A stretch of DNA of 32,000 bases from Halovivax gelatinilyticus (GTDB taxonomy: Archaea; Halobacteriota; Halobacteria; Halobacteriales; Natrialbaceae), in NCBI RefSeq assembly GCF_024300625.1, contig NZ_CP101322.1, positions 43,992-75,991 of the forward strand. Direction: 5' to 3'. Made by a program: the position numbers and the translations under genes. This document shows positions 3,164-22,052 of the stretch, piece by piece; within the stretch, counting starts at the first letter, position 1; each line of letters starts with the position of its first letter. The notes beneath the pieces are model-generated. The model was given only the letters and a program-made list of their open reading frames with translations, did no database searches and was not told where the DNA came from.

Positions 3164-3507
3164 GCTTCCCGTTTAGAAGTGCTTGAACAAAAGAACACTG
3201 TTAAGAACCCATTTCATTAAAATGAATGATTTCTACTAATGTATCGAATTCATTGGAAAGTATTTGAGACGGGATGTTGAAACCATTTCTGGTCTAAGCA
3301 CATAGGAGGTTACGGTATGATTGACTATCAATTCAGATTATAAAAGCAAGCAATTTTATTCAGAATATTAATTTTAACCCTATATAAGAATGTGTAACTC
3401 AATTGGAATGAGGATCTGATTCTCACAAAGAATGGGAGGCGTTGCCGTTGTGCCTGGCGTGTCCCTGCGGATTGGATGGAGTAGCCAACGGAGTAACCAG
3501 CCTCAGG

Positions 3508-4479
3508 TTAGCGCGGGATATCTGAGTCGGGGCCGACACCGCCAGCATTGACCGCGATCTCGCAAGCGAACTCAAGCGATTTAACAAGATTCTCTACATC
3601 TTCTTCGCTGGAGATAACGCTTCGATTTCCATGCATCACCTTGTTACGGTACTTCTCAACAGTGTCAAAGGCAATTTTGCATCGAGTCTTAGAAGGAAAG
3701 CCCAATTTTTCCATGAGATCCTCGTTATCCCGAACAATTTCCTTCAGGTCAGCAATGGCCATGAATTCGACGGGATGCAAATCTACATTCTCATTGACAG
3801 CGTTTTGCCACCGATCTAAAGCTCTTCCTCTGGACCGCACATCTTGGTATACCATTTGAATTTCATCGAGGCCATACTTCTCTTTGATAAGTTCCGATAC
3901 TGTTTTCGCAGTCTCAGCATAGTAGCTAAACAAGTACTCTTTCGCAGCCCTTGTATTAATGTCAGCATGAGTCACAACCATCCAAGAATCCGGATCAGGG
4001 TGCCTAACTACCGCGAATGGATACTCGGTTAGAATATTTATACAATATAGCATTATGTCATTATAGTTGACGTACTGTTCTTCATCAATTGAGTATACCT
4101 CGCCGGTTTCCACCTCGTAGAATTCACGTGATTTGTATGGTCTAATGGGGGCGTAGTCGTATCCCTTATCCTCAATATCTTTGACAATGTCCGCCATGAT
4201 CTCATTTTGGTCAAGCTCGTTCTGGGCCACGAAGTAGATGGGAGAACCTAAGTCTGATGCGCTACCTTCACTCGGGTATCTAGTGTACTCCTCAACTTCC
4301 TCCTCACTCCAGTACATATGAAAATGCCCGACCGCAACTGACAAAACGTTATTCACATTCCATTTGCCAACTTCTTGAAGTTTATAATACTGTAGATTGT
4401 CGAAATAGATCTGTGCTAAATTATAAATATGTCCACATATCTTATTCCATATAACGTCACCGGGCGCTAACCTTGCCAC
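3508..4479 (-). CDS. HEPN-domain protein (C-terminal R-x4-H); N-terminal domain unknown
   Basis: 323-aa ORF in an AT-rich block. The C-terminus KYRNKVMHGNRS contains R-N-K-V-M-H (3631-3648, checked by back-translation), which is the HEPN R-x4-6-H signature, followed by a helical tail. The first codon is GTG, so the start is uncertain. Confidence 0.6.
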   Translation of the reverse strand: MARLAPGDVIWNKICGHIYNLAQIYFDNLQYYKLQEVGKWNVNNVLSVAVGHFHMYWSEEEVEEYTRYPSEGSASDLGSPIYFVAQNELDQNEIMADIVKDIEDKGYDYAPIRPYKSREFYEVETGEVYSIDEEQYVNYNDIMLYCINILTEYPFAVVRHPDPDSWMVVTHADINTRAAKEYLFSYYAETAKTVSELIKEKYGLDEIQMVYQDVRSRGRALDRWQNAVNENVDLHPVEFMAIADLKEIVRDNEDLMEKLGFPSKTRCKIAFDTVEKYRNKVMHGNRSVISSEEDVENLVKSLEFACEIAVNAGGVGPDSDIPR

Positions 4480-4733
4480 CTTCTGGTTTGGATGGTGGCA
4501 TCCTAAAACGCTCGATAAAGAGATTCAAGTAGTAACCGGCTGACTTTCAAATACCACGTGATAAAATTACTGTCGTACTATACCTATCCTCTGGATCATG
4601 CACACTAGCTATGTCAGACTCATATCGTTACAATGGCCCTCTGTTTAAAACGGTAGTGTTATTAGATCAATAGCCAAAATATTATTTTCAGTGGAGCAAT
4701 CGGGTTCTGAGTTCCTCCCATAGGATTATCATA

Positions 4734-5204
4734 TCAGCTTGTACGGTAGAGAGCCAACTTAATTGCGGCAGGTCTCTTAGTTACATTGTTGGGATTTACC
4801 CGCATCAGTCCTTGCGGATAGTAGTCCTTCGTATATCCGAAGATGGTATTGACCTTCTGCCGAGAAACAGAAATTTCCTCGAAATCAGTTAGGGTGTATA
4901 TCAAGTTTGATTCTCCGCCGCGCCAATACGTGGTGCTAGCCCAACAGTTGCCGTCCCTGAACTTGGAATTAACCCACGCCGTACCAATGTATGCCCCATT
5001 TTGGTAGAATAGCACAAGATCTCCGCTCTCCATTTTCTCAAAGTTTGCTTCGTTCCTGCTACCGGTTCTTGCACCCCAGAACCGGACTTCATCCTCCCCA
5101 TCCAGTGGTTCTGGGACGTCGCTAACCGCATTCAGGTTGACTACTTCCTGCACAGTATTATCGAAGTTTGGGGAGTCGCAGGGCGCCAAGTACACGTTTT
5201 TCAT
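4734..5204 (-). CDS. Hypothetical protein, tentatively PUA/EVE-like fold
   Basis: 156-aa ORF with an ATG start in the AT-rich block. VRFWGARTGSRNEANFEKMESGDLVLFYQNGAYIGTAWV resembles the W-G ... GD-hydrophobic-FY ... G pattern I associate with EVE/PUA-like domains. This rests on memory only and is a weak call. Confidence 0.45.
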   Translation of the reverse strand: MKNVYLAPCDSPNFDNTVQEVVNLNAVSDVPEPLDGEDEVRFWGARTGSRNEANFEKMESGDLVLFYQNGAYIGTAWVNSKFRDGNCWASTTYWRGGESNLIYTLTDFEEISVSRQKVNTIFGYTKDYYPQGLMRVNPNNVTKRPAAIKLALYRTS

Positions 5205-5323
5205 GGACTCTACACATAATCATCATTCAATATAAATAATACCAGTGTATCAGGGATCTGTTGTGTTCTGGATTTGTTGTTAGAATCAGTCCTTTCTGGG
5301 ATTATTAGGTTCCGAGGCTCACG

Positions 5324-8300
5324 TCATTCACCGTGCTCACACGGCCCCCCACGGGAGAAAGCATACGGACAAGACCCACACCGAGTCTCAGTGGGTCTCG
5401 CTGACAGTCCCTCCGGCGGTTTCACGGCAACCGACCGGAGGTCATACCGGAGCTCCTCCTCGTAATCGTCGACATCGCCTTCTCGTTCGACAGTTACTGG
5501 CGTGATATCGACTGCCCTGCTATCCTCGTCGACGTCGACGTACAGCAGGGTCAGGTCGCCCACTTCGACATCGTACGTCCGTTCCAGCAACCACGCGTAG
5601 GTCCGAAGCTGCCGTGCATACTTTCCACCGGCGTAGGAGTCGGCGTCGTGGACATCGGTGGTCTTGTAGTCGGCGAGGTGCCAGACGCCGTCCGCTTCGT
5701 ACAAGAGGTCGATCTCGCCGGTGACGGTCACGGTGGTGTCATCAATTTCGAGTGTCGTCGAGACGGTGTATTCGGGGTACACCTCATCGGCGGAAAGTGC
5801 CGCACGATACCGGTCGGAATCTCGCTCCATCGCCTCCACGATCCAGAGCGCGTACTCTCTAATTTCTGGGTCGAGTGTATTCGCGTATCTCGCTAACTGG
5901 TCGCGGCCCAGCAATCGATACTCAAGGACCTTGTGGACCGTGGTCCCCCACTTGTTCGGTGCCACTCCGCCGGGTGTTGACGCCTCTTCGACGGGCTCAC
6001 CGTCTCGATCGAGAGCCGGCCCTCCACCGTAAACCGACGCCACTTCCTGGACGTGCCGGTACTGATACCGGCGCGGACACTCGACGAGGTCGTGAATGCG
6101 CGACGGCGAGATCCGGTTCGGTCGATACGGGATTATTTCCGTTCGGTTCGTGGGGTCGGCGTCGAGGTGCCGATCGACGTCATCCACTGTGATGGGGTTA
6201 TGACTCGTCGGCGACGCCCGCGGCACGTCGTCCACGCCGATTGGAACCGCGCCGTCTCGCGTGTCGAATTCCACGATATCATCTAGCTCCCCCCAACTGG
6301 CGTCGGGAAGGAGCGTCTCGTTGATTGTCGTTGCCCAGGTCGTCCACCGGGTGAAGTTCTCGACCCAATCGGGTACGTCGGCTACGCCGATGAACAGGTG
6401 GTCCTCGGCGCGTGTAAACGCGACGTAGAGAACCCGCCAGAATTCCGCACGGCTCGGAGCCAGAAACTCGTTCAGCGGGTTGGCGTAGGTGAATTCCCCG
6501 GTGTCTTCGTCGACGTCGTTCGAGATCCAGATCGGTCCCGTCAAATCCGGGTATCGACCAGCGTCACGGTCCTCGTTCATCCACGTATCGAGGTTGTCCT
6601 CCGGGGATTCGAAGCTGACAGCGTTCGGCAGTGGACGGTCACTCGCGACGGGCCGTAGCGCCAGCCCGCGGTCACGGTCACTGACGAGTCGATCTGCTTG
6701 GAGTGGCGGCGAGTCCCAGGACCGCAACGCGTCGACGAGAAAGACGATCGGGTACTCCAGTCCCTTGGCCGCGTGAATGGTCGTGAGGGTAACGGTCTCT
6801 TCGTCTTCCGGATCCGTGACTTCAGCGACCGTGTGGTCGGGTTCACCGGTTTCCTCCGCTCGGTTTCGGAGTCGGGTTAGTCGCTCGACGAATTCGCGGT
6901 AGGGCAGCAGCTCCTCTTCTTCCCAGCCGTCGATGATCTGGGTGAGCGCCCAGACGTTGCCGTACCGCCGGATTCCATCCTCGCCGGTGAGCACCACCGC
7001 GTCGAACGCGGAGTGACGGATGATTCGGTTTAACAGGTCGGTCTTCGACCCCTCACGGTCCCATCGCAGGTCGTCGCGGAGTTCGACCAACGCTTTCAGT
7101 CGTTTGCGATCCGCTTCCGGTAGATCGGTAGGCCACGCACCGTCTTCCAGGAACTTGCCGAGATAGAAGCCCTCGCCGGCGATTGCTCGGATCGTGCGAT
7201 CGGAGCAGGCGACGAACGGAGATCGGAGAATTCGCATCAGCGACGCCTTGTCGTGAGGATTTGTGAACCAGTAGAGGACGTCGATGAGAAGCGTCACTTC
7301 CGGCTGCTCGAACAAATCGTCCGTCGCTTTCGGTGCCGCGTCGATACCGTAGGCCGAAAGCGCATCCACGTACCGATGCATGTGTGTCCGCGCCTGGAAG
7401 AGCAGCGTCACGTCCCCCGGCTTCGGCGTTCTTTCTTCGATTCCTTCGTCTTCGTCAATGCCTTCGAAGACGGACACATCGGTTTCACCAGCGACCATCG
7501 CCGCGATTCTGGCCGCCACTTCTTGCGCCTCGACCGGCGTCCAATCCTCACCTCGACTCGGGAAATCATCGCCGAGTCCGAAATCGAGAAGCAACATGTG
7601 GACGTGCGGGAAATCGTCGTCCCAAGACTTTCTCGGACCCTTCGGGCTAACATCGTTGTACGTCACGTTCACGTCGCCGAAATCGCCACGCCCAGCGTCT
7701 TCGAACAGTTCCCCGAAGAGCCCGTTAGCCGCAGTGATCAGATCCGGATGGCTACGGAAGTTGGAAGTCAGCGGCCTGTAGACCACGTCTTCGACCTCGA
7801 GATACGGAATTCGTCCGCCTTCTTCTCCCGCTTCACGCGCCCGGCCCACGATCTCTCCGAAGATACTCGGATCCGCCGACCGCCACTGATAGATCGACTG
7901 TTTCACGTCGCCGATGGCCAGCAATCGCGTCCGGCCACCGACATCCGTTACCAGTTCGCGGAGGACTCGACACTGAGCGGCACTGGTGTCCTGGAACTCG
8001 TCGACGAACACGAAATCGAACCGACGTCGTAGGCTCTCGACAAACGGGTGATCCGGGTTGTCCTCGACGAACGTTCTGAGCAGGTGGGTTGCGTCCTGAT
8101 ACGTCAGGTGGCCGCGCTCGTGAGTCAACTCGTCGTACAGTTGTTCATACGCGTCGAGGATGGTCGCGAAGTCCTCCACGAGCTGGTGTGACCGCTCGTA
8201 GGTGTCCGCCACGTGATCGACGAACGCTTCGCGGGCTCGTTCGGTGGCGTCATCATCGTCGGCAGTGACGGAGAGGTCGGCTCCATCGAAAACGACCGTC

Positions 8301-9013
8301 TCCATCAACGACCGGACGTCTTCGGACGATTGGGGAGGAGTCCGGTTCGCGTGAGCAGCGTCGAGGTTAGCGAGGAGGGACTTTCTCGCATCCTCTGGAG
8401 TGATGCAGAACTCGCGGCACTTCTGCTGGGCCGTCCGAATCATTTCGCGAACCGTTGCCGGCGGATACGGCCGCCAGGACTCGTCCGGATACGCGTTCTC
8501 TAACCGCCCGAATTCCGCCCGGTGGGTGGTACGGAGGTCGGCGAAGATTTCGTCCCGGATTTCTTCGAGATCGGCGCTCGATTCCAGCTCGAAGTTCGGG
8601 GGCAAATCCATCTCCGTCGCAGCTTCGCCGAGCAATTCGTTGAAAAGCGAATCGATCGTCCGAATCTGGCTGTCGGTCTCCAACCATCGGAACACGTCGG
8701 CCGGAAGCTCGCCGTCGGCGTCCACGTGATTCCGAAGTACCTCCCTGAGGTCTTCTCTGAGTTCACTCGCGGCATCTCGTGTGAACGTCGTGAGGAGAAT
8801 GGACGAGAACGGGTTCGTACCGTCGGCTGCCGTTTCGACGATGACCTCCGCGACCGTCGTTAACATCGTCGTCGTTTTTCCCGTTCCCGCGGCGGCGTCG
8901 ACGGCGACCCGACCGGTGCCCTCGTGGAACGCCTCGATGACCGCGGCTTGATCCTCTACCGGAGTGTCGTCATCCGGTCCGAACTGAAGCGACATCTCTT
9001 CGACGTAGCTCAC
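5324..9013 (-). CDS. UvrD/PcrA-family SF1A helicase fused to a C-terminal Cas4/RecB-type Fe-S PD-(D/E)xK nuclease (AddA-like subunit)
   Basis: Helicase motifs: DAAAGTGKTTTM (motif I), TFTRDAASELRE (Ia), FVDEFQDTS (II), GDVKQSIYQWRSADP (III), TSNFRSHP (IV), TIHAAKGLEYPIVFL (V), LYVAFTRAEDHL (VI). C-terminal nuclease: ECPRRYQY, IDLLYEADGVWHLADYKT, QLRTYAWLL (QxxxY), CGSCPYAFSRGGPC. The track start is GTG at 9013, forming a GTGA overlap with the upstream stop. An alternative ATG lies at 8995. Confidence 0.9.
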   Translation of the reverse strand: MSYVEEMSLQFGPDDDTPVEDQAAVIEAFHEGTGRVAVDAAAGTGKTTTMLTTVAEVIVETAADGTNPFSSILLTTFTRDAASELREDLREVLRNHVDADGELPADVFRWLETDSQIRTIDSLFNELLGEAATEMDLPPNFELESSADLEEIRDEIFADLRTTHRAEFGRLENAYPDESWRPYPPATVREMIRTAQQKCREFCITPEDARKSLLANLDAAHANRTPPQSSEDVRSLMETVVFDGADLSVTADDDDATERAREAFVDHVADTYERSHQLVEDFATILDAYEQLYDELTHERGHLTYQDATHLLRTFVEDNPDHPFVESLRRRFDFVFVDEFQDTSAAQCRVLRELVTDVGGRTRLLAIGDVKQSIYQWRSADPSIFGEIVGRAREAGEEGGRIPYLEVEDVVYRPLTSNFRSHPDLITAANGLFGELFEDAGRGDFGDVNVTYNDVSPKGPRKSWDDDFPHVHMLLLDFGLGDDFPSRGEDWTPVEAQEVAARIAAMVAGETDVSVFEGIDEDEGIEERTPKPGDVTLLFQARTHMHRYVDALSAYGIDAAPKATDDLFEQPEVTLLIDVLYWFTNPHDKASLMRILRSPFVACSDRTIRAIAGEGFYLGKFLEDGAWPTDLPEADRKRLKALVELRDDLRWDREGSKTDLLNRIIRHSAFDAVVLTGEDGIRRYGNVWALTQIIDGWEEEELLPYREFVERLTRLRNRAEETGEPDHTVAEVTDPEDEETVTLTTIHAAKGLEYPIVFLVDALRSWDSPPLQADRLVSDRDRGLALRPVASDRPLPNAVSFESPEDNLDTWMNEDRDAGRYPDLTGPIWISNDVDEDTGEFTYANPLNEFLAPSRAEFWRVLYVAFTRAEDHLFIGVADVPDWVENFTRWTTWATTINETLLPDASWGELDDIVEFDTRDGAVPIGVDDVPRASPTSHNPITVDDVDRHLDADPTNRTEIIPYRPNRISPSRIHDLVECPRRYQYRHVQEVASVYGGGPALDRDGEPVEEASTPGGVAPNKWGTTVHKVLEYRLLGRDQLARYANTLDPEIREYALWIVEAMERDSDRYRAALSADEVYPEYTVSTTLEIDDTTVTVTGEIDLLYEADGVWHLADYKTTDVHDADSYAGGKYARQLRTYAWLLERTYDVEVGDLTLLYVDVDEDSRAVDITPVTVEREGDVDDYEEELRYDLRSVAVKPPEGLSARPTETRCGSCPYAFSRGGPCEHGE

Positions 9014-12000
9014 CAGTCCTCACCCCCGCTCTCGTCGGCTCCATCGCGAGTTGGAACGCCACACAAATCACGGAAGGAGCACCCCTCACAGCCACCATTA
9101 TTGACAAACTCCTCGCTTACTGCGTACGTCACGGTTTCGTTCTCGGGCGTCATCGAGTCGAGCAGTTCTTCGAGCTCTTCACGCCACATGTCGGTCCGTT
9201 TCTCGAAGATGGTGGATCCGTTCGTTCGGACGTATTGTTCGTGAGGAACGAGTTCGATGTCGTCACCCAGGAGAAAGCCCTGCCGGCCGTTCGGACCGCT
9301 GGCATAGCGGTCGAGGAGGAACGCACCACCAGCCTCATCGATGGCGCTTGCTCTCGCCCGCGTGTCGATGGAATGCTTCGTCGGGATGGAACACTGATCG
9401 AGCCGTTCGCACGACCAGCACACTCTCTCCGCTCGTTCTGGTCGGAGCGTTCCGGTCCAGCAGTGTTTAAGGGCCGCCCGAGCCCCGCCCTGTCTTCCGC
9501 TCTGAAAGACAGGCACTGGGTCGTCGATGTCGGAGATTGTGTCGACTCTATGTGGTGGGATTACGAGCTTGTGGTCACCGACCTCGACGCGCTGCTCTCC
9601 GCGCCAGGACCAGGACCGATCGATCCCGGACTCGAGTTCCTGAGTGACGGTCAGATATTCGCCGACGAGCGCCTGGAACACGGATTCGTCGAGTTCGTCA
9701 TCCTCCCCGAGCCACATCTCGAAGTCGGATCGGAGCGCGGCGACGTCGTCGTAAGCACCGAGATCCGCCTGTCTATTCGGCAAGTGCGTCGTCACAAGCT
9801 GCTCGACCGCTCTGCGGTACGACGGAGGCACGTAGTGGTTTCCCACCACCGCTGGCACCGTCGGATACAATTCGCGTGCGTAGGGCGACTCCTCTTCCGG
9901 CCAGTCATCCCTGTTAAGCTCGGGGCCGTCGCGAGCGACGAGGAACTGATAAAAGTAGTACTTTAGATCACACTGTCCCATCAGATCGACCTCGTGTGGT
10001 CGGATCGGCGCGCCGACGACATCCGCGAGGGACAGGTCGCCCTCGAACGCCGGCTCGTCGGCCGATACCGTGACCGTCGTCTTCGGGTGGCGGAATCGCT
10101 CGCGCCGCGGAGCGATCTGGGAACGGTAGACTGGACCGTCGGCGTTCGACAACAGGCGAATCGCATCGGTCTCCGATTCGATCGCTCCGTCGCTCGGGCG
10201 GAAAACGGCTCCGGTAGAGTCGCGTTCACAGTGGTACGAAAGAAGGCGAAGGCGATCTCTCATCGGTCCTGTATCGGTTACGTCCGCCCGGTCCCGATGG
10301 TGCGTCTCGGACGGGAGCCAGTGGCTCTGTCGCACACGTTCGTACCCGCGGTCAGCTTCGTCGAGGACGTCCGTTAGCGATGCCACGAACGGCGACCAAG
10401 AGACTCGGTCGCCGGACGAGTCACGGGCGTGCCGACTGATCGTAATCCCTTCCGTGGCCGTACGAACCGCTGCTTCGTAGTCGTCGAGTTCCCGCCGATA
10501 CATCGCCTCCCCGCCGGGGAGGTATAACGGCGATGCATCCGTGGGACCCTCTGACGCGTACTGCTGGACGGTCTGGGAGAGCGCGTCGTGAAGAAAGGTC
10601 GGCGTTGGATGTTGTGCCGGGAACTCACCAGCTCCGACGCCGAGTAAGTATGCGCGTTTCGCCGATAGGAAGTAGGTGTTCGCCGGAATGACGACTCGAA
10701 CGGCGTTACCATCGGCATTGGAAGTAGCGTATTGGCTGCGACCGACAACGTCTCCGAGCGCCTGAGCGGCGAGATCCCACCCTGGTTCGGCAAGATCGAG
10801 ATCACGAAGGTAATCGTAGTACGAACCGACGCCGGCAAGCTCGTCGGCGACGCGCTCGGCGAGGTGAGACGGGTGCTTTCGGATGACGTCCGTGCGCGTT
10901 GTATCGACGCCGGGACCGCCCGACCTGCGGACTGGAGCGTCAGCTACGTGAACGACGTGTTGTTGGCACAGCCCGTCCAGGAGTGTCGTCACCTCCTCGC
11001 CCTTAACAGGGGCGCTCTCAGCCCGTTCGAGTGCCCAGGAGAGGAAGTAAACAACTTGTCGCCAAACCTCGCTCTCACCTTCCCGTTCGAGAGCCGATTT
11101 TCGCCACTCATCGACGGTACGTCGCTCTAATCTGGCGCCGGTAGTTATGGCGTGGAGACGCTCCTCGAGTAGGAGGAACGAAGCGTCGTCGAGGGGCCAG
11201 TCGCCGGGTGCGTCCTCGAGCGGGCAGAATCCGAGCCTGAGCGGGTCGACAACGTCGTGGTACGATACCGCATCGCCTTTGGCCGCCGCTGCGATGAGAT
11301 CGACGGTCGCCTTTAAAAATCGGTACGCGACCACCTGCGCGAGCGGCCGGTCCGATTCGATGTGGTACGGCAGTCCGTACGTGGTGAATACGTCATCGAT
11401 GATCGCCTCGTACTCGCGCGTCTCCCGTGGGATGACGAGATGCTCACCGGGAGTCACCGAACCCTCGCGGACGTTCGAGGCGATATCCCGTGCGACGCGT
11501 TCGACCTCTCGACGTCGGTCTGGAGCGTCCAAAAAGCGAACTTCGTCAGGAATCCCGTCCGGACGCGAGCCTTCGACGGCGGCCTCTACGAGATTCTCCG
11601 CAAAGAAGGAAGTATTCGAGGACTCCAACGAGGCAATCCTTACGTCGATACCCGTACGTCGGAATCTATCCGCGAGTCGCTCCCGGGAGCCTACGCCGAA
11701 AAAGAAACGAAGTTCGGGTCCGTCCTCGAGGTCGTCGAGCTCGCGGAAGAATCTGAGCATCGTATTGTCAACCGATTTTATCGTTCCGACTGCAACCCAC
11801 TCGACGTCACCGAAATGCCGATTCCACTCCTCTTGGAGCACGTCTCGGGCCGCCCGCGTCAGATGCGATTCTGAAAGGAATACCTCTGGTGGGAGGGGAT
11901 CGGTTCTGTCACGGAGAACGGCGGTCAGCGCGGCAAGCCCGGCCAACGCTCGCTTATTTCGGTGACACGCAAAGGGATCATCCAACCGGGCCGTCGCTTC

Positions 12001-12444
12001 GGCAAGTCGTTCGTGATCGTTGCCGGCATCGGTCGCGCGCCAATATCGATCCAGCTCGGTTCCGAGCGTTTCGTATAGTTCATCATCCCACGTATCCCCG
12101 ATCGATCCAATTAACGCGCGGAGTGCCGTGGGAGCGTCCTCCGCTTGCGCGTCTTCGACGACGCTCCGGAGAAGGCGCTCGGCAACGCGTTGATTCAGGA
12201 TACGCGGATCGCCATTATATCGCTGATCGAGCAGGCTTCGCGAGACGCTCTGAAGCGTCTCGTATTCCGCGACCTGACTCGGTTGAACGCCGCGTTCGAT
12301 CAGTCCCTCTCGAAGGTTCCGCATTGAACGCGCCCCGACGAGCAAACAAAGACCGTTTCCGGAATCGCCAACTGACCGGGGCTGGTCTTCCGCCTTTTCC
12401 CTAAGATACTGAAGTAAAGACCCGGCAGAGACCAGTGTCGCCAT
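9010..12444 (-). CDS. AddB-like partner subunit: degenerate helicase-like N-terminus plus C-terminal Cys-rich RecB/Cas4-type nuclease region
   Basis: 1144-aa ORF with an ATG start at 12444. I see no Walker A motif. The C-terminal part has GQCDLKYYFYQFL (compare CPRRYQY in the neighbour), HRVDTISDIDD, CWSCERLDQC and GGCEGCSFRDLC. Its stop overlaps the start of the UvrD-like gene at 9010-9013, and the size and order match AddB-AddA pairs. Confidence 0.7.
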   Translation of the reverse strand: MATLVSAGSLLQYLREKAEDQPRSVGDSGNGLCLLVGARSMRNLREGLIERGVQPSQVAEYETLQSVSRSLLDQRYNGDPRILNQRVAERLLRSVVEDAQAEDAPTALRALIGSIGDTWDDELYETLGTELDRYWRATDAGNDHERLAEATARLDDPFACHRNKRALAGLAALTAVLRDRTDPLPPEVFLSESHLTRAARDVLQEEWNRHFGDVEWVAVGTIKSVDNTMLRFFRELDDLEDGPELRFFFGVGSRERLADRFRRTGIDVRIASLESSNTSFFAENLVEAAVEGSRPDGIPDEVRFLDAPDRRREVERVARDIASNVREGSVTPGEHLVIPRETREYEAIIDDVFTTYGLPYHIESDRPLAQVVAYRFLKATVDLIAAAAKGDAVSYHDVVDPLRLGFCPLEDAPGDWPLDDASFLLLEERLHAITTGARLERRTVDEWRKSALEREGESEVWRQVVYFLSWALERAESAPVKGEEVTTLLDGLCQQHVVHVADAPVRRSGGPGVDTTRTDVIRKHPSHLAERVADELAGVGSYYDYLRDLDLAEPGWDLAAQALGDVVGRSQYATSNADGNAVRVVIPANTYFLSAKRAYLLGVGAGEFPAQHPTPTFLHDALSQTVQQYASEGPTDASPLYLPGGEAMYRRELDDYEAAVRTATEGITISRHARDSSGDRVSWSPFVASLTDVLDEADRGYERVRQSHWLPSETHHRDRADVTDTGPMRDRLRLLSYHCERDSTGAVFRPSDGAIESETDAIRLLSNADGPVYRSQIAPRRERFRHPKTTVTVSADEPAFEGDLSLADVVGAPIRPHEVDLMGQCDLKYYFYQFLVARDGPELNRDDWPEEESPYARELYPTVPAVVGNHYVPPSYRRAVEQLVTTHLPNRQADLGAYDDVAALRSDFEMWLGEDDELDESVFQALVGEYLTVTQELESGIDRSWSWRGEQRVEVGDHKLVIPPHRVDTISDIDDPVPVFQSGRQGGARAALKHCWTGTLRPERAERVCWSCERLDQCSIPTKHSIDTRARASAIDEAGGAFLLDRYASGPNGRQGFLLGDDIELVPHEQYVRTNGSTIFEKRTDMWREELEELLDSMTPENETVTYAVSEEFVNNGGCEGCSFRDLCGVPTRDGADESGGEDW

Positions 12445-12535
12445 CGTGACAGTCGTGGAGGACCAGCAACATCAAAGTACCGTCGGCCTATTCCTTTATC
12501 CGGTTATTCTGGAACGGAATCGGACTATTACGACC

Positions 12536-14542
12536 TTATTGGGTGTCCACCGGACTGGTCGCACGGTCGTCCAGGTAGTCCAATAATTCTTGAATGTTGT
12601 CATTCCTGAAAAACTCGGTGAGCTGTAATGCCTGGGGAGATTCAGGAAATACCACTCCTTGACCGTATTCGTCAAACGCGTCCTCGATAACTCGCCTGTA
12701 CGTTTTGCTCGTCACGTAACCAATAATCTCGTCGAATTGATCGCCGTAGCGTTCGAGGTACTGTGAGACGCGACCGGTGACCAATTCGATCTGATCGGTG
12801 TCCTCTTTCGCGAGAACGTAATCATACTCCAATATTGGCTGTTCTCGCTCGAACTCTTCGGGCACGGGTCCGTACATTCCCGAAATTGTAACTTTATGTA
12901 CGGCTTCGCTCAGAGACCCAAGTTTATCGAACAAGATTGAATGAGTCCGCGAACGCGAGTAGGGCTTTTGCTGGCTGCACGGGACAAATAGAAGGATGTC
13001 TTTCTCCCTAGGAGGCTCGTACGATTGGGTGCTAACGTTGAAATCGTTCGGACTATGTTTGAGCGAGATTTGACGCGTGCCAACGGATTCGTCGATTCCG
13101 GCACCCCACTTGGAGAGCTTCGACTGATCGCTCGCCAACGTTGAACCTGGGAGGAGATCGTACGCGCCACGGGACTCGAGTACGTTTTTAAGTCGTTTGT
13201 TTCGAAGTTGAGCCTGCTTGAGCCCGCGCTTGATGTCATCGTGTTCTCTTGCAAACTCAACAACGTACTCTAGCAGTCGTCCCTCTCGAATAGCCCCGCG
13301 GACGCGTCCGAGTTCCTCATTGTACACTTCGAAGTTGTGCCGAGCAAGGAGCGCATAGTAATCACTTTTGATATTTTTCCCGTTCTCTTTTCTACGCTGT
13401 CGTTGCTCGTAGCTCAGATCGGTGTTGAGTTCTTTGACCAACCGGTCATAACTCACACCCCCATCTGAACACAGGAGACAATTCGGGAGATCGCACGGAT
13501 AACTTCTGTCCGGTCCTAGGTACTGATCTAGATCAGATAGTTTATGAGTCGTCCATGTCTCAGGATGGAGATACTTTTTATACTGTGCAGTATGCATGTG
13601 GGTTGAACAGTCAAACGTATCGACACCAAGAAGGGAGAGCAGGCCAACCTGTTTTCCACCCACACCGAAAACGTGGAGGCCGATTTCGTCCGAACGGGCT
13701 TCCGGAATAGCGTCTTTTGCTCCCTGAACGATATCCACCAATACATCGATACTATCTCGAAGCGGAACGAGCGATCCTACGGCAAATCCTTGGAACGAAC
13801 TGTCGATATCGAGTTTGTCGACACGATCGAGAAAGTTCCCAACGTACCAATTGACCGTTTCGTAATCGTGTCCGTGAAGCGCGACATATACGCTCGGCTC
13901 GTCACCAGCCGCCTGCCGCTCTCGCAAGTGATCCGCTGCGCGGCTGTTGATCGGGAACTCATCGTCGAGGAGATTTGGTTTATCGAGAAGGCGGAGACAT
14001 TCCACTGCGCTATCTATACTCCGATTCATCCGCTCAACTTTCTCTTCTTCTTTAAGATTCGGTGGAATTGGATAATCGAGGGTCGCAACTATGTCGGCCC
14101 CAAAGTCGAGCTGTAGACCGAGTATGCTTTTTGGGTCCGTGTAAAGTCCCCACTCGTTTGGGACACCGCCCTTCTCTGGAGCCTCGCCAAATGTGTTGGA
14201 ATTCATCAGCTTGAAACCGCCAGAATCGATGAAGATGGGGGCGTCGAGACGGTTGAAGCGCTCGTGAAATGTCTTTGGTCTCCAAAAGTCATTCAGATTG
14301 TTCGGAGATACGCCGTAGTCGGTGAAGCTCATCGCCTGAAACATTATCCCTTGAAGATGCTCCTTGTCGATGAGCTTATCCCGCATTCGACGCCAGACAC
14401 CGCCGGACTTCTCAGTAGTACCGCCGATAAGATTGACGACCGGGAACAATGCAGGCGTCTCTACGGGGCCGTGCGTCACATCTAATTCCCCTAGGCGGCC
14501 AAAACCGTCATCACCCACCGTCTTCACCCGAAAGGACGCCAT
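12536..14542 (-). CDS. TGT-family paralog with a C-terminal ArcS-type (PC-x3-KPY) domain; ArcS-like but without a recognisable PUA domain
   Basis: N-terminal TGT core: ETPALFPVVN, IFIDSGGF, ALHGHDY, FAVGSLVP, LHVFGVGG..LGVDTFDCSTH. The zinc site is an unusual C-x4-C-x2-C (CDLPNCLLC, 13469-13495). At 12941-12982 the C-terminal domain reads PCSQQKPYSRSRTH, which is PC-x3-KPY-x2-S-x2-H, followed by VTISGMYGPVPEEFE..PILEYDY (12818-12892). Confidence 0.85.
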   Translation of the reverse strand: MASFRVKTVGDDGFGRLGELDVTHGPVETPALFPVVNLIGGTTEKSGGVWRRMRDKLIDKEHLQGIMFQAMSFTDYGVSPNNLNDFWRPKTFHERFNRLDAPIFIDSGGFKLMNSNTFGEAPEKGGVPNEWGLYTDPKSILGLQLDFGADIVATLDYPIPPNLKEEEKVERMNRSIDSAVECLRLLDKPNLLDDEFPINSRAADHLRERQAAGDEPSVYVALHGHDYETVNWYVGNFLDRVDKLDIDSSFQGFAVGSLVPLRDSIDVLVDIVQGAKDAIPEARSDEIGLHVFGVGGKQVGLLSLLGVDTFDCSTHMHTAQYKKYLHPETWTTHKLSDLDQYLGPDRSYPCDLPNCLLCSDGGVSYDRLVKELNTDLSYEQRQRRKENGKNIKSDYYALLARHNFEVYNEELGRVRGAIREGRLLEYVVEFAREHDDIKRGLKQAQLRNKRLKNVLESRGAYDLLPGSTLASDQSKLSKWGAGIDESVGTRQISLKHSPNDFNVSTQSYEPPREKDILLFVPCSQQKPYSRSRTHSILFDKLGSLSEAVHKVTISGMYGPVPEEFEREQPILEYDYVLAKEDTDQIELVTGRVSQYLERYGDQFDEIIGYVTSKTYRRVIEDAFDEYGQGVVFPESPQALQLTEFFRNDNIQELLDYLDDRATSPVDTQ

Positions 14543-14607
14543 TGAATCAACAAAGGATACAGAATCGTTCCAGATAGACTCTTCGTTATCGCCGCTTCGA
14601 AATACGG

Positions 14608-15093
14608 CTAATCAGGATCCGTCACCGATTGGATTTGATCTGATATCTGGACAGTTGTGTACTCTGCGGCCTCAGTCCAGGAACTCTGCCATTCGTTTCC
14701 TTGTTTCGGCGGCTCCAGCGGAAATTCTACTGGATGATACGAGAGGTCGTCAATAGCCCCCGCTGCGATGGCTCCGACGAACTCCGCATTTTTCCGTTTC
14801 GATGAAACACCACCGCTAGCCAAGTCATAATAATTTGTGAATATTTGTGCGACGAGTACGATATCTACGTCAGTTCTTTCGTTGGTAAGATGACGGAAAA
14901 TCTTCGCAGAATTGTCGGCAGGATCAGCTCGCCTCCACTCCAATTCCAAGAGCACGAGCAGTTTGTCGTTTTCTCCACCGATGTCTACCGGTGTTCCGGC
15001 TAGATCATATTCAGTCTGCCATGACAAGCTAGTATTCGATTCACTGAGTCGGTTGTATATGTACGTCTGTACCTTCGAAGCAAATTCACCCAT
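14608..15093 (-). CDS. Small hypothetical protein, possible PD-(D/E)xK (restriction-endonuclease-like) fold
   Basis: The ORF sits between the GHKL ATPase and the ArcS-like gene. TPVDIGGENDKLLVLLELEWRR has the hydrophobic-D ... hydrophobic-E-x-E/K spacing of REase folds, without a clean K. The ATG at 15093 lies 5 nt after the upstream stop. The track's TTG at 15102 would overlap that stop. Confidence 0.5.
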   Translation of the reverse strand: MGEFASKVQTYIYNRLSESNTSLSWQTEYDLAGTPVDIGGENDKLLVLLELEWRRADPADNSAKIFRHLTNERTDVDIVLVAQIFTNYYDLASGGVSSKRKNAEFVGAIAAGAIDDLSYHPVEFPLEPPKQGNEWQSSWTEAAEYTTVQISDQIQSVTDPD

Positions 15094-15098
15094 GTCGA

Positions 15099-16664
15099 TC
15101 AATCGTCGGCGACGGCTCGCGGTGACATTGGTTCAATGTGGTGGCTGAGTGGCAATATCTCGACATAGGTAGGGTTCTCATCCCCGTAAAGTAGGCCGTT
15201 TTCCTCTAGATCAATCTCGATGTCTTCGCCGAGATACCCTTGCCGTTCGTATTCTCGTAACACCACCGGGTCCCCGTGATCCCAGCAAATTATGAGATCT
15301 ACTTCCTCGAACGTCAGCTCCTCATTGAAGTGATTTGTCAATGAACAGTGAACAGCCGCATTGCGAAGTTTCCCGTTCTGACGTGCAATCGCGTGTACGT
15401 CCGAATCCGGCTCGTAATCTTCGACAGAAATCTGTCCTGGTAAGGTATTCTCGTTCTCCCGTGCGAGCGTGAGTAGGACCTCAGTTCGATTCGATGGCTC
15501 ACCGGAGTCCCCCGATTCCACGCGCTCTCGTCGGAGCTTGAGTGAGGCACGGCGGTTCCGAGCTCGGCGTTTAATCTCCGCTTCTCGTCGGATTTCAAGA
15601 TATTCTTTGAACCACGGATCTTGTGCCACTTTCGATAGATGAAATTCGGTCGCTTCTTTGAGCGCCTGGAACACAGGGCTCGATTTATTTCGAATCGTTT
15701 CACGATTGGCTGATAATTCGATATCTTGGCAGTTCACAACAAAGAAGAAGTGAAGGAATTCATTGTCATGAGAGATTGCCTCGTTCAGCCGTTCAACCTT
15801 GATGTGATCCTTTGCAAGCCAGACACCGAACTGTGCGGAATGCTTTCCATAGGTAGGAAGCTCGTTTCGAGCGGCTTTCCCACCGACCATTCCAGTGATG
15901 TGGAGCGTCGTCGTGCCACCATCGTAATCGGCTTCGACCTCTGTCGGTCCGTAGTGTTTACACATTCGCTCGGCAGGGAAATCTGACGAGTAATCGGGCT
16001 CAAGTTGTTCGTTCGGGAACTCAAGTCGGTTCTTCGTCTCAACTTCCGGATATGAATCGTCTATTTCGTCACCAAGACGAACAGTGATGTCCATTTCGTG
16101 CTGATCGTCCTCGAACATGTGTGCCGTCGAGCCGGCGATAGTTTTCCACTTTAGATAATGTTCGATCTTATTATAAGTGAGTGATTCCGGATCGAATCCC
16201 TGACCGGATCGGAAATTGTGGATTCTGATCCTCGTTCCCTTGTGAAGATTGCTTACAGGTGTTTCAGTGACTTCGTACTCAGGAAGTACCCGGTTGTTAA
16301 GTTTTTTCCAAGGGTCACTCATCACCGCCCGGAGGTTGGTGCCATCATGGACGGTATTGACGACGATCTCATCGCTTTTGTAGAATATTTTCGTCCCATG
16401 ACCTTTGTACCCTATCGAATCCGTCTTGCGCGAATTCCCCAAATCGAAAAAGGATTCGAGGTCACGGAGGTCCATGCCGTCTCCATCGTCATCGATGATG
16501 ATGTCAGAGCCCATCTCTCGACTTTTAATCTCGATTTCAATATTTGAAGCATTTGCATCGTACGAGTTCGATAGCGATTCCCGGATTACCTCAAGCGGGT
16601 CCTCGAAGTCGCTCGCAATTTCGAGGAACTCGTTCACTTCGTTGACCTTTGGAGCTTTTTTCAT
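15099..16664 (-). CDS. GHKL (Bergerat-fold) ATPase, HATPase_c_3 / prokaryotic MORC-like
   Basis: IRESLSNSYDANAS is the N-box E-x3-N-x2-D-A, DDDGDGMD is D-x-G-x-G (both within 16476-16580), and GYKGHGTK is the G2 box. There is a basic coiled segment (REAEIKRRARNRRASLKLRRER). An ATGA overlap with the upstream TGT gene at 16661-16664 was checked. Confidence 0.85.
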   Translation of the reverse strand: MKKAPKVNEVNEFLEIASDFEDPLEVIRESLSNSYDANASNIEIEIKSREMGSDIIIDDDGDGMDLRDLESFFDLGNSRKTDSIGYKGHGTKIFYKSDEIVVNTVHDGTNLRAVMSDPWKKLNNRVLPEYEVTETPVSNLHKGTRIRIHNFRSGQGFDPESLTYNKIEHYLKWKTIAGSTAHMFEDDQHEMDITVRLGDEIDDSYPEVETKNRLEFPNEQLEPDYSSDFPAERMCKHYGPTEVEADYDGGTTTLHITGMVGGKAARNELPTYGKHSAQFGVWLAKDHIKVERLNEAISHDNEFLHFFFVVNCQDIELSANRETIRNKSSPVFQALKEATEFHLSKVAQDPWFKEYLEIRREAEIKRRARNRRASLKLRRERVESGDSGEPSNRTEVLLTLARENENTLPGQISVEDYEPDSDVHAIARQNGKLRNAAVHCSLTNHFNEELTFEEVDLIICWDHGDPVVLREYERQGYLGEDIEIDLEENGLLYGDENPTYVEILPLSHHIEPMSPRAVADD

Positions 16665-17908
16665 TGGAAGTACCCCCCGAGCGAGTGGTTAACTACTCGA
16701 TGAGCAGACTCTCGAGTTGGTTTATCTTGTGCAACAGTGCCTTCGATATACTCGACCAACGATGACGAATCACCTGATTTGACCCGTTGGCGAACCTCTT
16801 CGATCTCTCGTTTTTGAATGATTAAGTTGTGCATAGCTACCGGCCCCAACATGTCTTTTTTATATGGAGCATTTCCACGCATCCACCTTCGCATGTGCTG
16901 AGACGAGCATACTGGGCAATCACACTCGTCAAAATTCGCTTCATTAACGTTCACCGTCTCCATAAGTGATAGGAAATATCCACCGTTGATCGCATTTTGC
17001 AAGTACGTCGATGAATCGAAGGTGTCTACGCCAAGCGCAACAAGTAATGGGACGGCTCTGCTGGAAATTCCGAGAACGTGCAACGGTAATTTGTCGAAAC
17101 CCCAATCGTGTAGCACTTCGTGGCAATCGATTACAGCGTCGATTAGGGCCGACCGATTGTCCTTCATTGGTACGAGACTACCAAGGGCAATTCCGTCGAA
17201 AGACGACCGAAGCTTTTCCGCGCTCACATAGTCAGTTATCTCGGTGAGGAAAGCGTCCATCATCGAGTAGTTATATCCGTGTAAAGTGAGGTACCGGGCC
17301 CCGGTATACTCGTCAGACAGGTCAAGAAATATCTCGATGTTTTTTCCCGTTTTTCGGGCTTTTTCGAGCCGTTCCTCGTGAGTATCGGACGGCGTTATCG
17401 GGTGGTCGAGATTGACGATGATATCACCACCCATTCGTTTCTGTATCTCGAATACTTTCGCTTGATCGATATCCTCTTGGAAGTCGCTTCCATCCAGGCT
17501 TTCATTATTTAAGAATTTGAATCCACCAGAGTCTAGGAAGATAACTCCGTTAAAAGGTGAAAACACCTCTCGTTCTTTTATCGGTTCATAGACATAGTCG
17601 GCATATCGTTCTTTTGAGACGTTGTAGTCGGTGAGGGACGAAACGGAGGTCATGACCGCATCAAAGAATTTCGCGTATGCATCATCCCCCCCAATTCGGT
17701 CAGCTCCGATCATAAACTCCTTGACCGTTCGATGGATACCCCCGCCGTAAACACTATTCTCGGTACCGCCACCGTAAAAATTTACGACCGGGAATAGGTT
17801 TGGTGTTTCAATTACCGAGTCACCAATTGTCAGCTTACCAGCACGGGCGTCTCCCACCGTCTCCGAAACCTCAAAATTTGCCGAATAACTTGTCTTTGAA
17901 TATGACAT
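16661..17908 (-). CDS. Stand-alone TGT-family protein, DpdA-like (catalytic core only, no PUA or C-terminal tRNA-binding domains)
   Basis: ETPNLFPVVNFYGG, IFLDSGGF, LTLHGYNY, IALGSLVP, LHVLGISS..LGVDTFDSSTY. The zinc site is canonical: CDCPVC at 16907-16924 (checked) plus VAMHNL. The protein is 415 aa and ends shortly after the Zn subdomain. Confidence 0.85.
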   Translation of the reverse strand: MSYSKTSYSANFEVSETVGDARAGKLTIGDSVIETPNLFPVVNFYGGGTENSVYGGGIHRTVKEFMIGADRIGGDDAYAKFFDAVMTSVSSLTDYNVSKERYADYVYEPIKEREVFSPFNGVIFLDSGGFKFLNNESLDGSDFQEDIDQAKVFEIQKRMGGDIIVNLDHPITPSDTHEERLEKARKTGKNIEIFLDLSDEYTGARYLTLHGYNYSMMDAFLTEITDYVSAEKLRSSFDGIALGSLVPMKDNRSALIDAVIDCHEVLHDWGFDKLPLHVLGISSRAVPLLVALGVDTFDSSTYLQNAINGGYFLSLMETVNVNEANFDECDCPVCSSQHMRRWMRGNAPYKKDMLGPVAMHNLIIQKREIEEVRQRVKSGDSSSLVEYIEGTVAQDKPTRESAHRVVNHSLGGYFQ

Positions 17909-18369
17909 TAGTTAACCTTCCTAATACCCGACTCTTCGCCTTGAAGGAACTGTTTGAGCGAGCGCCCCTTCAAACCGATACCATCTCCCTGTACCAGGTA
18001 TGTCTCAACATCTAGTCCTTCATCAAATCCGTCAATGGCCCTTCGATACTCTTTACCAGCGTTAATGACAACTCGTTTATATTGTTTCTCGGTGACCCGA
18101 TTTTTCAGCTCATTCCTTACTTTTGGTCCGAGCTCTTTTGCCCTGTGAGAGTCCATTCTTCGGTCATACGGAGAGATTGGTTCTTCAGGATCGATGATAC
18201 CGTGTTTCGCAGATAGAATACATAAGTCACAATCAGAATATCCGCCTCCCTCTCCCATCGATTTTTTGATAATTTTGAAGAAGTATCCAGAATACAGTTC
18301 GAGGGCAGAGACGGGTTTATCCGGCTCGATTTTGGACTTCGAGCAAGATTGAACGAGCAGCGTCGACAT
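17908..18369 (-). CDS. Small C-x3-K protein, paralogous to the C-terminal ArcS-type domain of the 668-aa protein (DUF5591/DUF6884-like, tentative)
   Basis: LLVQSCSKSK (18331-18345) aligns with LLFVPCSQQK of the ArcS-like protein. CILSAKHGIIDPEEPISPYD (18163-18219) aligns with VTISGMYGPVPEEFE..PILEYD. A TAATG stop/start overlap joins it to the DpdA-like gene at 17908. Confidence 0.6.
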   Translation of the reverse strand: MSTLLVQSCSKSKIEPDKPVSALELYSGYFFKIIKKSMGEGGGYSDCDLCILSAKHGIIDPEEPISPYDRRMDSHRAKELGPKVRNELKNRVTEKQYKRVVINAGKEYRRAIDGFDEGLDVETYLVQGDGIGLKGRSLKQFLQGEESGIRKVN

Positions 18370-18397
18370 GGGTTGGACACTGATCGTTGTTCCAGTG

Positions 18398-18409
18398 CTA
18401 TAATAGTTT
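18398..18409 (-). promoter_or_regulatory. Candidate archaeal TATA box (minus strand AAACTATTATAG) for the C-x3-K/TGT/GHKL operon
   Basis: AT-rich element centred about 33 nt upstream of the ATG at 18369, inside the only sizeable intergenic gap (18370-18583) of the long minus-strand array. Confidence 0.3.
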
Positions 18410-18583
18410 CTGGTGGTCGCGCTGTCTGTTCATTGACTATGTAATCTTACCCAGAAATAGTCCGAAGTCATATAACAACGACCGCACACATATCATAGAC
18501 CACCTACATTCCATGATGTTACTGGACTAAGTGGCATATTTAGGATTTATTATTTTCCTTTCTCCCTGGTAAAGTTTTGGGGT

Positions 18584-19282
18584 TTAATTCATAAAGGACC
18601 TAGGACGTTCACTGTACTCGATTGGATCCCTCGATCCGACGCTTCTGAACGAATCTAGCCGCAACGCACAGGAGTCACAAATCCCACACGCCGGCGCTTC
18701 GTCCCGGTAACACGACCACGTGAGTTCGTACGGAACCTCAAGTTCGAGACCCCGCCCAGCGATTTCCGTCTTCGACCACTCGACGAACGGTGCGACCAGA
18801 TCGATCTCTGTTTCGGGTTTCGTACCGACGTCAACGACCCGCTGGAAGGCGTTAAAGAACTCCGGGCGGCAATCAGGATAGCCTGCGAAATCCTCCGAGT
18901 GCGCACCGATGAACACCGCGGAGCAGTCGTTCGCTTCGGCGTACGAAACAGCCATCGCTAACAGATTCGCGTTCCGGAACGGAACGTACGATGTCGGGAT
19001 TTCGTCGCTCTCAAGGTCCGCATCGGACACCTCAATTTCGTCGTCGGTAAGGCTAGAGGCACCGATTTTCGACAGATGGCTCGTCTCAATGTGCAGAAAG
19101 TCCGCCGCGTTTACTTCCTCTGCCAGCGCTTTCGCGCACTCGTATTCCTTGTTCTCGGTTCGCTGCCCGTACGAGGTATGTAAAAAGTACGGTTGGTAGT
19201 CGCGGTCGATCGCTTCGTAGACCGCGGTCGCACTGTCCATCCCACCTGAAACCAGTATTGCTGCGCGTACGTCGTTACTCAT
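18584..19282 (-). CDS. queC: 7-cyano-7-deazaguanine (preQ0) synthase QueC
   Basis: N-terminal PP-loop ILVSGGMDSATA. C-terminal zinc cysteines WSCYRDEAPACGICDSCALR. Length is 232 aa. Confidence 0.95.
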   Translation of the reverse strand: MSNDVRAAILVSGGMDSATAVYEAIDRDYQPYFLHTSYGQRTENKEYECAKALAEEVNAADFLHIETSHLSKIGASSLTDDEIEVSDADLESDEIPTSYVPFRNANLLAMAVSYAEANDCSAVFIGAHSEDFAGYPDCRPEFFNAFQRVVDVGTKPETEIDLVAPFVEWSKTEIAGRGLELEVPYELTWSCYRDEAPACGICDSCALRLDSFRSVGSRDPIEYSERPRSFMN

Positions 19283-21111: not shown

Positions 21112-21286
21112 ACCCAAAGAATATCCCGAGTGCACATAAGCTTATTTGTTGATTTGTTCGTACTGCGGAAACGTCTACAACGAATCATCTTCATCTATCA
21201 GTTCATGACTATTATTTGCCGAGAAAACCGAAAGTTACAGATTGAGTTGGGATATGCCCCAATGAATTGTAGAAAGGTGAGGTCTG

Positions 21287-21682: not shown

Positions 21683-21689
21683 TGACGAA

Positions 21690-21696
21690 CACCTCC
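21690..21696 (-). promoter_or_regulatory. Shine-Dalgarno-like GGAGGTG, 7 nt upstream of the wHTH start codon
   Basis: Plus-strand cacctcc at 21690-21696 is GGAGGTG on the minus strand. The ATG is at 21682. Confidence 0.4.
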
Positions 21697-22032: not shown

Positions 22033-22052
22033 AATCGTGACACTAACCAGGT

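Follow-up and report, generated by a model that had tools for sequence, protein, structure and literature searches.

A divergent AddAB/RecBC-type helicase-nuclease pair of archaea and its possible capture into a Dpd-like 7-deazaguanine island of Halovivax gelatinilyticus

In bacteria, helicase-nucleases of the RecBCD and AddAB type are supplied from the chromosome. In RecB-RecC one subunit is both motor and nuclease, while the partner holds dead helicase-like and nuclease-like domains. In mycobacterial AdnAB, the AddB-like subunit AdnA holds an iron-sulfur (Fe-S) cluster at the DNA fork (PMC13000450), and archaea are described as lacking AddAB and RecBCD (bioRxiv 10.64898/2026.05.08.723854; PMC13748450). 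UvrD-Cas4-like fusions are found in bacteria and mesophilic archaea, stand-alone or beside restriction-modification (RM) genes, and an ancillary part in several defence systems has been proposed for them (Hudaiberdiev et al. 2017, PMC5704561). The bacterial proteins DpdD-K confer a restriction phenotype, their individual roles being unknown (PMC10164549). Here we describe two adjacent genes, AddA-like and AddB-like, that lie beside Dpd-like 7-deazaguanine modification genes in a 32,000-nucleotide (nt) stretch of the haloarchaeon Halovivax gelatinilyticus (positions 43,992-75,991 of NZ_CP101322.1, hereafter the window; the genome is 3.7 Mb in a single contig). The original prediction, made from the letters of the window, was an AddAB-like pair with Cas4-type nucleases in both subunits, appended to the modification operon and acting as its degradative arm. 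The reading that we prefer, to which we give a probability of roughly 45%, is that an archaeal AddAB/RecBC-type pair was captured into a Dpd-like island as an accessory end-processor with its own promoter.

The AddA-like protein of 1229 amino acids (aa) displays the full UvrD/PcrA motif set (Walker A AGTGKT at residues 42-47, DEFQD, GDVKQSIY, TIHAAKGLE and VAFTRA), and the nuclease motifs CPRRYQY, D-Y-K and QxxxY were located where a C-terminal nuclease had been predicted. Pfam recognised UvrD-helicase (2.5e-39), UvrD_C (1e-17) and PDDEXK_1 (9e-24, residues 967-1218). The top NCBIfam model was addA_Gpos, at 4e-67 and far below its equivalog cut-off, the closest PDB match was Bacillus AddA (3u44_A, 1e-38), and the match to TIGR00372 (cas4) was weak (9e-6); PADLOC returned GajB/UvrD-type matches only. 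All orthologues, Asgard included, retain GEIDLLY, DYKT and QLRTY. The same holds for the four-Cys signature in all members; the cysteine cluster predicted as C-x2-C-x8-C is indeed present, its last spacing being x9 rather than x8. By its sequence the AddA-like subunit is of the AddA/RecB class, combining a complete superfamily 1A (SF1A) motor of the UvrD/PcrA type with a C-terminal RecB/Cas4-type nuclease that carries four Cys. In one relative (L126:7872-11560) the AddA-like gene is split into frames of 286 aa and 943 aa, by a frameshift or an assembly error.

The 1144-aa partner, as predicted, has no Walker A: the motif G-x-x-G-x-GK[ST] was found at the N terminus of neither the AddB-like protein nor its 17 orthologues, while it is present in canonical bacterial AddB representatives. 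The predicted CDLKYYFYQ (residues 825-833) and two C-x2-C-x5-C clusters (1009-1018 and 1119-1128) are also there, and C825, C1119, C1122 and C1128 are invariant across the 18 orthologues. Besides, a second four-Cys set (C995, C1009, C1012, C1018) is shared by most haloarchaeal members and is absent in Asgard and in one haloarchaeal subclade; AlphaFold confidence is low over this insert. Neither Pfam nor PADLOC gave a match for the AddB-like protein, and its sole PDB sequence match was Bacillus AddB (3u44_B). A profile of the 18 orthologues searched against the PDB found AddB at 9e-11, with the C-terminal Cys triplet collinear, and RecC as second match; profile-profile comparison (hhalign) with canonical AddB gave 99.9% probability (E 2e-33, residues 41-870). 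With the AlphaFold model (pLDDT 77, pTM 0.60) as query, Foldseek listed five AddB chains first (E 8e-24, TM 0.49), followed by AdnA and RecC. Altogether, sequence and model comparisons identify the AddB-like protein as a homologue of AddB, with a predicted inactivated helicase-like scaffold and a C-terminal nuclease-like domain. The prediction of an AddAB-like pair is thus borne out by the Pfam, NCBIfam, PDB, profile-profile and Foldseek matches.

The claim of Cas4-type nucleases in both subunits holds for the four-Cys signature, which both possess, but not for the catalytic residues of the AddB-like subunit. None of its 18 orthologues has the canonical D, D/ExK and QxxxY of the AddB nuclease. 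In a domain-level hhalign comparison combined with predicted strands, H-R-V-D stands opposite I-D-R-x-D and VPVFQSG opposite V-x-D-Y-K-S-G; this alignment is weak (21% probability), so that its register is provisional. The AddB-like nuclease domain is probably inactive, with its Fe-S ligands kept. A 'DxR active site' was considered when MAFFT put D-Y-K on the invariant D1027-x-R1029, as a K-to-R variant; it was dropped because the domain-level alignment and the predicted strands place the canonical motifs elsewhere. In the public record the AddB-like protein starts at M41 (1104 aa), the 40 residues ahead being encoded by 12325-12444. Judging from sequence conservation, the longer frame from 12444 is the better call, because these 40 residues are conserved in orthologues (C33 and G37 are nearly invariant).

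That the AddB-like protein is without canonical catalytic residues, and that AddA is split in L126, would also fit a decaying relic, in which ATPase and nuclease residues were lost since the pair no longer functions. We consider this very improbable. Both frames are intact and long, about 70 columns, all four Cys among them, are invariant across 18 AddB-like orthologues of 29-62% identity, and the motif pattern is the same from Halobacteria to Asgard; RecC provides the example of a functional dead helicase/nuclease scaffold.

In order of transcription the AddB-like gene precedes the AddA-like gene, and the two are translationally coupled: they overlap by 4 nt, reading GGTGA, with the TGA stop at 9012-9010 and the GTG start at 9013-9011. 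Their distribution was followed in 400 haloarchaeal genomes, all species representatives, to which metagenome contigs and GTDB loci were added. Full-length AddB-like relatives occur in 11 of the 400 other sampled Halobacteria (~3%), in various scattered genera; the four same-genus genomes searched gave none. In a library of 1.84 billion representatives, 103 proteins match the AddB-like protein at E <= 1e-3, the next tier being non-halophilic archaea, namely Candidatus Heimdallarchaeum aukensis, an uncultured archaeon and Thorarchaeota (cluster P0068). The Asgard representatives (L118:8001-15213 of Candidatus Heimdallarchaeum aukensis, L119 and the Thorarchaeota cluster) have the same B-then-A pair with the same pattern: B is without a Walker A, each subunit carries four Cys, and A shows CPRRYAY followed by C-x2-C-x9-C. 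The B-then-A order was found, co-oriented, in each of more than 25 loci, and stop and start usually overlap (mostly by 4 nt). We hold with high confidence that the pair is a true AddAB-like helicase-nuclease and belongs to a distinct family of archaea, shared by Halobacteria and Asgard. Two loci labelled as Clostridia/Halobacteroidaceae metagenome-assembled genomes (L111 and L116) came up as bacterial members; since they are short contigs (3-4 kb) of 63-64% GC from one hypersaline sediment, they are treated as mis-binned haloarchaeal DNA.

A second, canonical AddB-like type, with PDDEXK_1 at 8e-29 and a DYK motif, is encoded by 80 of the 400 Halobacteria. It is paired with a Cys-less AddA in two genomes, G312 (L029:9261-12548) and G314 (L035:5424-8729), where canonical and divergent types lie within 10 kb of each other. 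Contrary to the statements that archaea lack them, enzymes of the AddAB-like kind are common among haloarchaea, and the premise of the original prediction that archaea normally do without AddAB is too strong for this group.

In the window, the genes of the minus strand are transcribed in the order QueD, QueE, FolE, QueC, DUF6884/DpdC-like, DpdA-like, GHKL, 164-aa protein, ArcS-like, AddB-like and AddA-like. Neighbours of the pair match DpdA, DpdC, DpdJ and DpdK in PADLOC, where the neighbouring helicase scores as DpdJ at 8e-43 and the PLD protein as DpdK at 2e-15. Related arrangements recur among the nearest relatives. In L120, QueC, QueE and QueD diverge from a row of four genes (Vut_1, a 164-aa protein homologue, AddB and AddA); QueD is divergent from AddB and AddA in L121/L122, where a convergent PLD gene and a gene for a 1347-aa helicase follow. 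The order is QueC, DUF4143 ATPase, HHH protein, AddB, AddA and PLD in L124, and GHKL, QueD, QueE, QueC, a 239-aa protein, AddB, AddA, PLD, helicase and SF1 nuclease-helicase in L126. Finally, L123 and the genome of Haloprofundus halobius (G122) show AddA, PLD, helicase and SF1 gene in a row; G122 has an ArcS-like/DpdA/GHKL module 10 kb past the SF1 gene, with the GHKL module ~27 kb from AddA. The PLD and DpdJ-like helicase genes converge on AddA in this group.

In a tree of AddA proteins, the window and its linked relatives form one clade of eight members with 100/100 support, in which AddA is 58-75% identical. The clade consists of metagenome contigs and Haloprofundus, and the species-genome sample holds one other member of it. 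Neither the sister of this clade (L125) nor any deeper branch shows the linkage. Within the clade the linkage persists through inversions, insertions, an AddB identity of only ~46% and hosts of different families (Halovivax, Haloprofundus). Linkage to the deazaguanine system is thus real but lineage-specific, and since the linked members make up a single fully supported clade with unlinked sister and deeper branches, the association arose once and was kept. 'No linkage at all', a result obtained from the species-representative genomes, was overturned by the metagenome contigs of the nearest relatives.

Several observations weigh against a capture into the island. The DUF6884-DpdA-GHKL core is present in ~40 of the 400 haloarchaeal genomes, usually with the ArcS-like and que genes close by, and the AddAB-like pair lies within -7/+13 kb of the GHKL gene in none of 40 such Dpd-like modules; it is missing entirely from 38 of the 40 genomes, only G122 and G314 having it. 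Near the module, the helicase and PLD pair occurs in 13/40 and the SF1 nuclease-helicase in 3/40. AddB is not enriched in module-bearing genomes, either for the divergent type (2/40 vs 11/400) or for the canonical type (10/40 vs 80/400). In every deeper branch of the family, that of Asgard archaea too, the pair stands alone among unrelated RM or housekeeping genes. Because the association arose once, it counts as one evolutionary event, and co-transfer in a mobile island could hold the genes together without functional dependence. The GC content of the AddAB-like genes resembles that of the genome (0.61 each, for a genome mean of 0.631), the remaining island being at 0.45-0.56 (TGT/GHKL genes 0.45-0.51, que genes 0.56). 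Finally, the inactivity of the AddB-like nuclease that the proposed division of labour includes depends on the weak domain alignment given above and on predicted secondary structure.

Much of this would be expected if the pair were an independent cassette, a self-sufficient barrier that degrades or resects the ends of linear foreign DNA in RecBCD-like manner and co-travels with the island without depending on its mark. The flanks were free of TGT, que and GHKL genes in 10 of the 11 genomes, and equally so at six additional GTDB loci and on four metagenome contigs from the deeper branches. For most members the two genes stand by themselves in variable parts of the genome that abound in RM genes, with neighbours ranging from methylases and ResIII to Eco57I/MmeI-type, McrB/EVE, HNH and XamI genes. 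Its absence from 38 of the 40 module genomes, a GC content unlike that of the adjoining genes, a TATA-like box of its own (see below) and the ancillary defence part proposed for UvrD-Cas4 fusions (PMC5704561) all speak for such a cassette. What it leaves unaccounted for is that, in the window's clade, the position between que genes and PLD-helicase pair was kept through rearrangements, down to ~46% AddB identity and across families, and we regard it as somewhat unlikely. The functional tie to the deazaguanine system suggested in the original prediction thus gains genuine though limited backing: linkage is present in the window's own eight-member clade and absent from the remaining family, where the pair is a stand-alone locus (>15 other pairs, Asgard too), the pattern that the original prediction had itself named as evidence against it. 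Because of these stand-alone pairs and of the 38 module genomes without one, the pair can be no more than an accessory to a single version of the system, and most systems of this kind can do without it; it is not the degradative arm that had been proposed.

A promoter-like box bears on both readings. The overlap of the two genes at 9010-9013, the 91-nt gap that separates the AddB-like start codon from the stop of the ArcS-like gene (12445-12535) and a GC content above that of the TGT module were all confirmed. The gap contains a TATA-like, T-rich box, GTACTTTGATG (~12470-12480), which precedes the ATG of AddB by 27-37 nt, and a box at this position is kept in all relatives, whatever gene is upstream. 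Because the box is kept in relatives with different upstream genes, the sequence points to a pair that is transcribed separately, probably as a leaderless transcript, and not as the tail of the modification operon; that the pair is 'appended to the operon' is doubtful. Scans for sigma-70 promoters and intrinsic terminators, both unsuited to archaea, gave nothing above shuffled sequences.

Resection of double-strand breaks for homologous recombination is the role of AddAB, AdnAB and RecBCD in bacteria (PMC3321194, PMC13000450), and the pair could be a repair enzyme of this kind, either as a general alternative to Mre11-Rad50/NurA-HerA or as a rescue of the host chromosome where the restriction arm of the island cuts it at under-modified sites. 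The family is old, since it reaches Asgard archaea, and in one subclade (G079, G179 and L130) the pair sits in a conserved housekeeping neighbourhood. The pair is nevertheless patchily distributed, being present in 11 of 400 other species and absent from the four same-genus genomes searched, and its location is a low-GC island of ~90 kb. NurA is encoded elsewhere in the genome, therefore the pair is not the sole resection candidate. Moreover, archaea are not known to have a Chi-like system (bioRxiv 10.64898/2026.05.08.723854). We judge a repair role to be improbable. A Pfam search of the genome for the Rad50 zinc hook gave no match, and the same model was also silent in a Haloferax control.

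Coordinates of the pair, its motifs and its neighbours are collected in Table 1.

Table 1. Features of the window (window coordinates; residue numbers refer to the encoded protein).
Feature	Position	Strand	Remarks
AddB-like subunit gene	9010-12444	-	1144 aa, ATG start
AddA-like subunit gene	5324-9013	-	1229 aa, GTG start
AddA-like Walker A (AGTGKT)	8873-8890	-	conserved in orthologues
AddA-like nuclease domain	5339-6079	-	pattern kept out to Asgard homologues
CPRRYQY	6059-6079 (residues 979-985)	-	AddA-like nuclease
DYKT	5660-5671 (residues 1115-1118)	-	AddA-like nuclease
QLRTY	5597-5611 (residues 1135-1139)	-	AddA-like nuclease
CGSC-x9-C	5339-5380 (residues 1212-1225)	-	AddA-like nuclease
C-x2-C-x5-C, AddB-like C terminus	9061-9090 (residues 1119-1128)	-	collinear with the C1121/C1124/C1130 Fe-S region of Bacillus AddB
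Second four-Cys cluster: C995 (KHCW) and CWSCERLDQC (residues 1009-1018)	9391-9468	-	nuclease-domain insert
DpdJ-like SF2 helicase, C-terminal 908 aa	1-2727	+	gene truncated by window edge; relatives ~1340 aa
DpdK-like PLD/HKD nuclease, 155 aa	2696-3163	+	
AT-rich two-gene cassette, 323 aa + 156 aa, GC 0.43	3164-5323	-	between AddA and PLD genes
Dpd-like 7-deazaguanine module and preQ0 genes	12536-21135	-	
ArcS-like TGT+DUF5591 fusion	12536-14542	-	
164-aa protein	14608-15102	-	matches no family
GHKL ATPase	15099-16664	-	
DpdA-like TGT	16661-17908	-	
DUF6884/DpdC-like protein	17908-18369	-	
QueC, FolE, QueE, QueD	18584-21135	-	
1476-aa PD-(D/E)xK + SF1 helicase (MkoA/DpdJ-like)	22053-26483	+	divergent, beyond the que genes

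The first ~90 kb of the chromosome, the window included, have a GC content of 0.50-0.61 vs 0.63 for the genome and form a large variable region; window positions 20001-32000 are almost unshared with same-genus genomes, and no tRNA gene marking an integration site was found in the window. The cassette at 3164-5323 parts AddA from PLD only in this genome, and because AddA directly adjoins the PLD gene in relatives, it is taken as an insertion here. A 54%-identical homologue of its 156-aa protein is encoded in G122, ~9 kb upstream of AddB. The 1476-aa SF1 nuclease-helicase type recurs beside the PLD-helicase pair in G122, L123 and L126.

The position of the 164-aa protein shifts: it comes after GHKL in the window, right before AddB in L120 (3004-3483), and elsewhere beside QueC/ArcS-like genes. 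This protein travels with the deazaguanine system. A DUF4143/AAA_14 ATPase, which matches the PADLOC candidate PDC-S01 at 1e-19, recurs near the pair (27120-28688 in the window, upstream of AddB in G122, and L124:445-2163). At 28934-31090 the window encodes a 718-aa vWA-domain protein with a weak match to the restriction endonuclease domain that accompanies pPIWI_RE, and by this similarity it is possibly another defence gene of the island. In L120 a gene of the Vut_1/YhhQ family (2130-2789) stands between the que genes and AddB; the family includes queuosine-precursor transporters, and this gene suggests that preQ0 import may be a further capacity of the island. Among haloarchaea, the subclade that diverges most (G249 7409-12525, G077 and G174) always has the pair beside three genes of ~1020-1050, 455-480 and 230 aa that belong to no Pfam family, and which could be an uncharacterised partner system.

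With regard to capture into the island, we propose that the two proteins would pair as a heterodimer belonging to an archaeal family of AddAB/RecBC-type helicase-nucleases. In it the AddA-like subunit would be the single SF1A motor and probably the sole active nuclease, stapled by a four-Cys, presumably 4Fe-4S, cluster, while the AddB-like subunit would be a non-ATPase scaffold of the AddB/RecC kind, whose nuclease-like domain would keep Fe-S ligands and have lost its catalytic residues. Such a complex would load on double-stranded DNA ends, unwind them at the expense of ATP and cleave one or both displaced strands. In the lineage of the window, the cassette would have been captured once into the Dpd-like 7-deazaguanine modification-restriction island, there to serve, driven by its own promoter, as an accessory module that processes or degrades ends. 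Its substrate would be the breaks made in unmarked DNA by the DpdJ-like helicase and DpdK-like PLD nuclease and/or by the SF1 nuclease-helicase, a parallel to RecBCD finishing off restricted phage DNA in bacteria. We hold with moderate confidence that this lineage was recruited as an accessory of the Dpd-like island and would process the ends left by the DpdJ/DpdK-like and SF1 nucleases; degradation of unmarked foreign DNA by the pair is plausible. It seems somewhat unlikely, on the other hand, that the pair is the island's own RecBCD-like exonuclease, the host having none, and is required to destroy unmarked DNA or to rescue the host.

The division of labour predicted for the divergent type is unusual in that Fe-S signatures are present in both subunits and that an ATPase site and a nuclease site are both missing from B. 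If the pair were the island's own exonuclease, the enzyme would have one motor, one nuclease, Fe-S signatures in both subunits, a pseudo-nuclease partner and possibly a second metal cluster, and no earlier enzyme of the AddAB type in archaea would have a defined role. If the link to the island is functional, it would offer a handle on the way in which DNA is finished off in the Dpd restriction step, so far uncharacterised, and on how archaeal defence islands make up for the absence of a host RecBCD. CRISPR spacer acquisition in bacteria depends on AddAB/RecBCD-type nucleases, and the pair would then bear on this process as well.

Compared with known systems, the island resembles the bacterial Dpd cluster dpdD-dpdK (PMC10164549) by its DpdJ-like, DpdK-like, DpdA-like and DpdC-like neighbours and by its comparable size, but AddAB is not described in bacterial Dpd clusters, and neither the AddA-like nor the AddB-like protein matched the PADLOC Dpd models. 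With the UvrD-Cas4 fusions (PMC5704561) the AddA-like protein shares the domain architecture, on which the likeness rests, of a UvrD helicase and a pfam12705 Cas4-like nuclease with four Cys; that study describes neither an AddB-like partner nor a link to deazaguanine genes. Mycobacterial AdnAB is likewise a heterodimer, and AdnA is the second-best fold match of the AddB-like subunit. AdnA retains Walker motifs and an active nuclease, whereas the haloarchaeal B subunit shows neither, so that the Walker A/B motors and active nucleases present in both AdnAB subunits are missing on the B side here, and the Cys signature occurs in both haloarchaeal subunits, the cluster of AdnAB being in AdnA only (PMC13000450). 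As for E. coli RecBCD, the AddB-like protein matches RecC both in fold and in the profile search, where RecC ranks second. The haloarchaeal pair would, like RecB-RecC, consist of one motor-nuclease and a dead scaffold, and by sequence it is nearest to AddAB; unlike RecBCD it has Fe-S ligands, and no RecD-like gene is coupled to it.

The closest counterpart is AddAB of Bacillus subtilis (PDB 3U44/4CEH; PMC3321194), from which the pair differs in several ways. The haloarchaeal B subunit lacks Walker A as well as D, DxK and QxxxY and has an additional Cys cluster, the A subunit also bears a four-Cys signature, the cluster of AddAB being in AddB only (PMC3321194), and the host is an archaeon. In the structural alignment identity reaches only 12-13%, and the NCBIfam equivalog cut-offs are missed by a wide margin. 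Both enzymes nevertheless consist of two subunits, with an SF1A motor and a RecB-type nuclease in A and a helicase-like scaffold in B whose C-terminal domain is bracketed by four Cys at collinear places; by sequence the A subunit matches AddA best, and the B subunit matches AddB best in sequence and fold alike.

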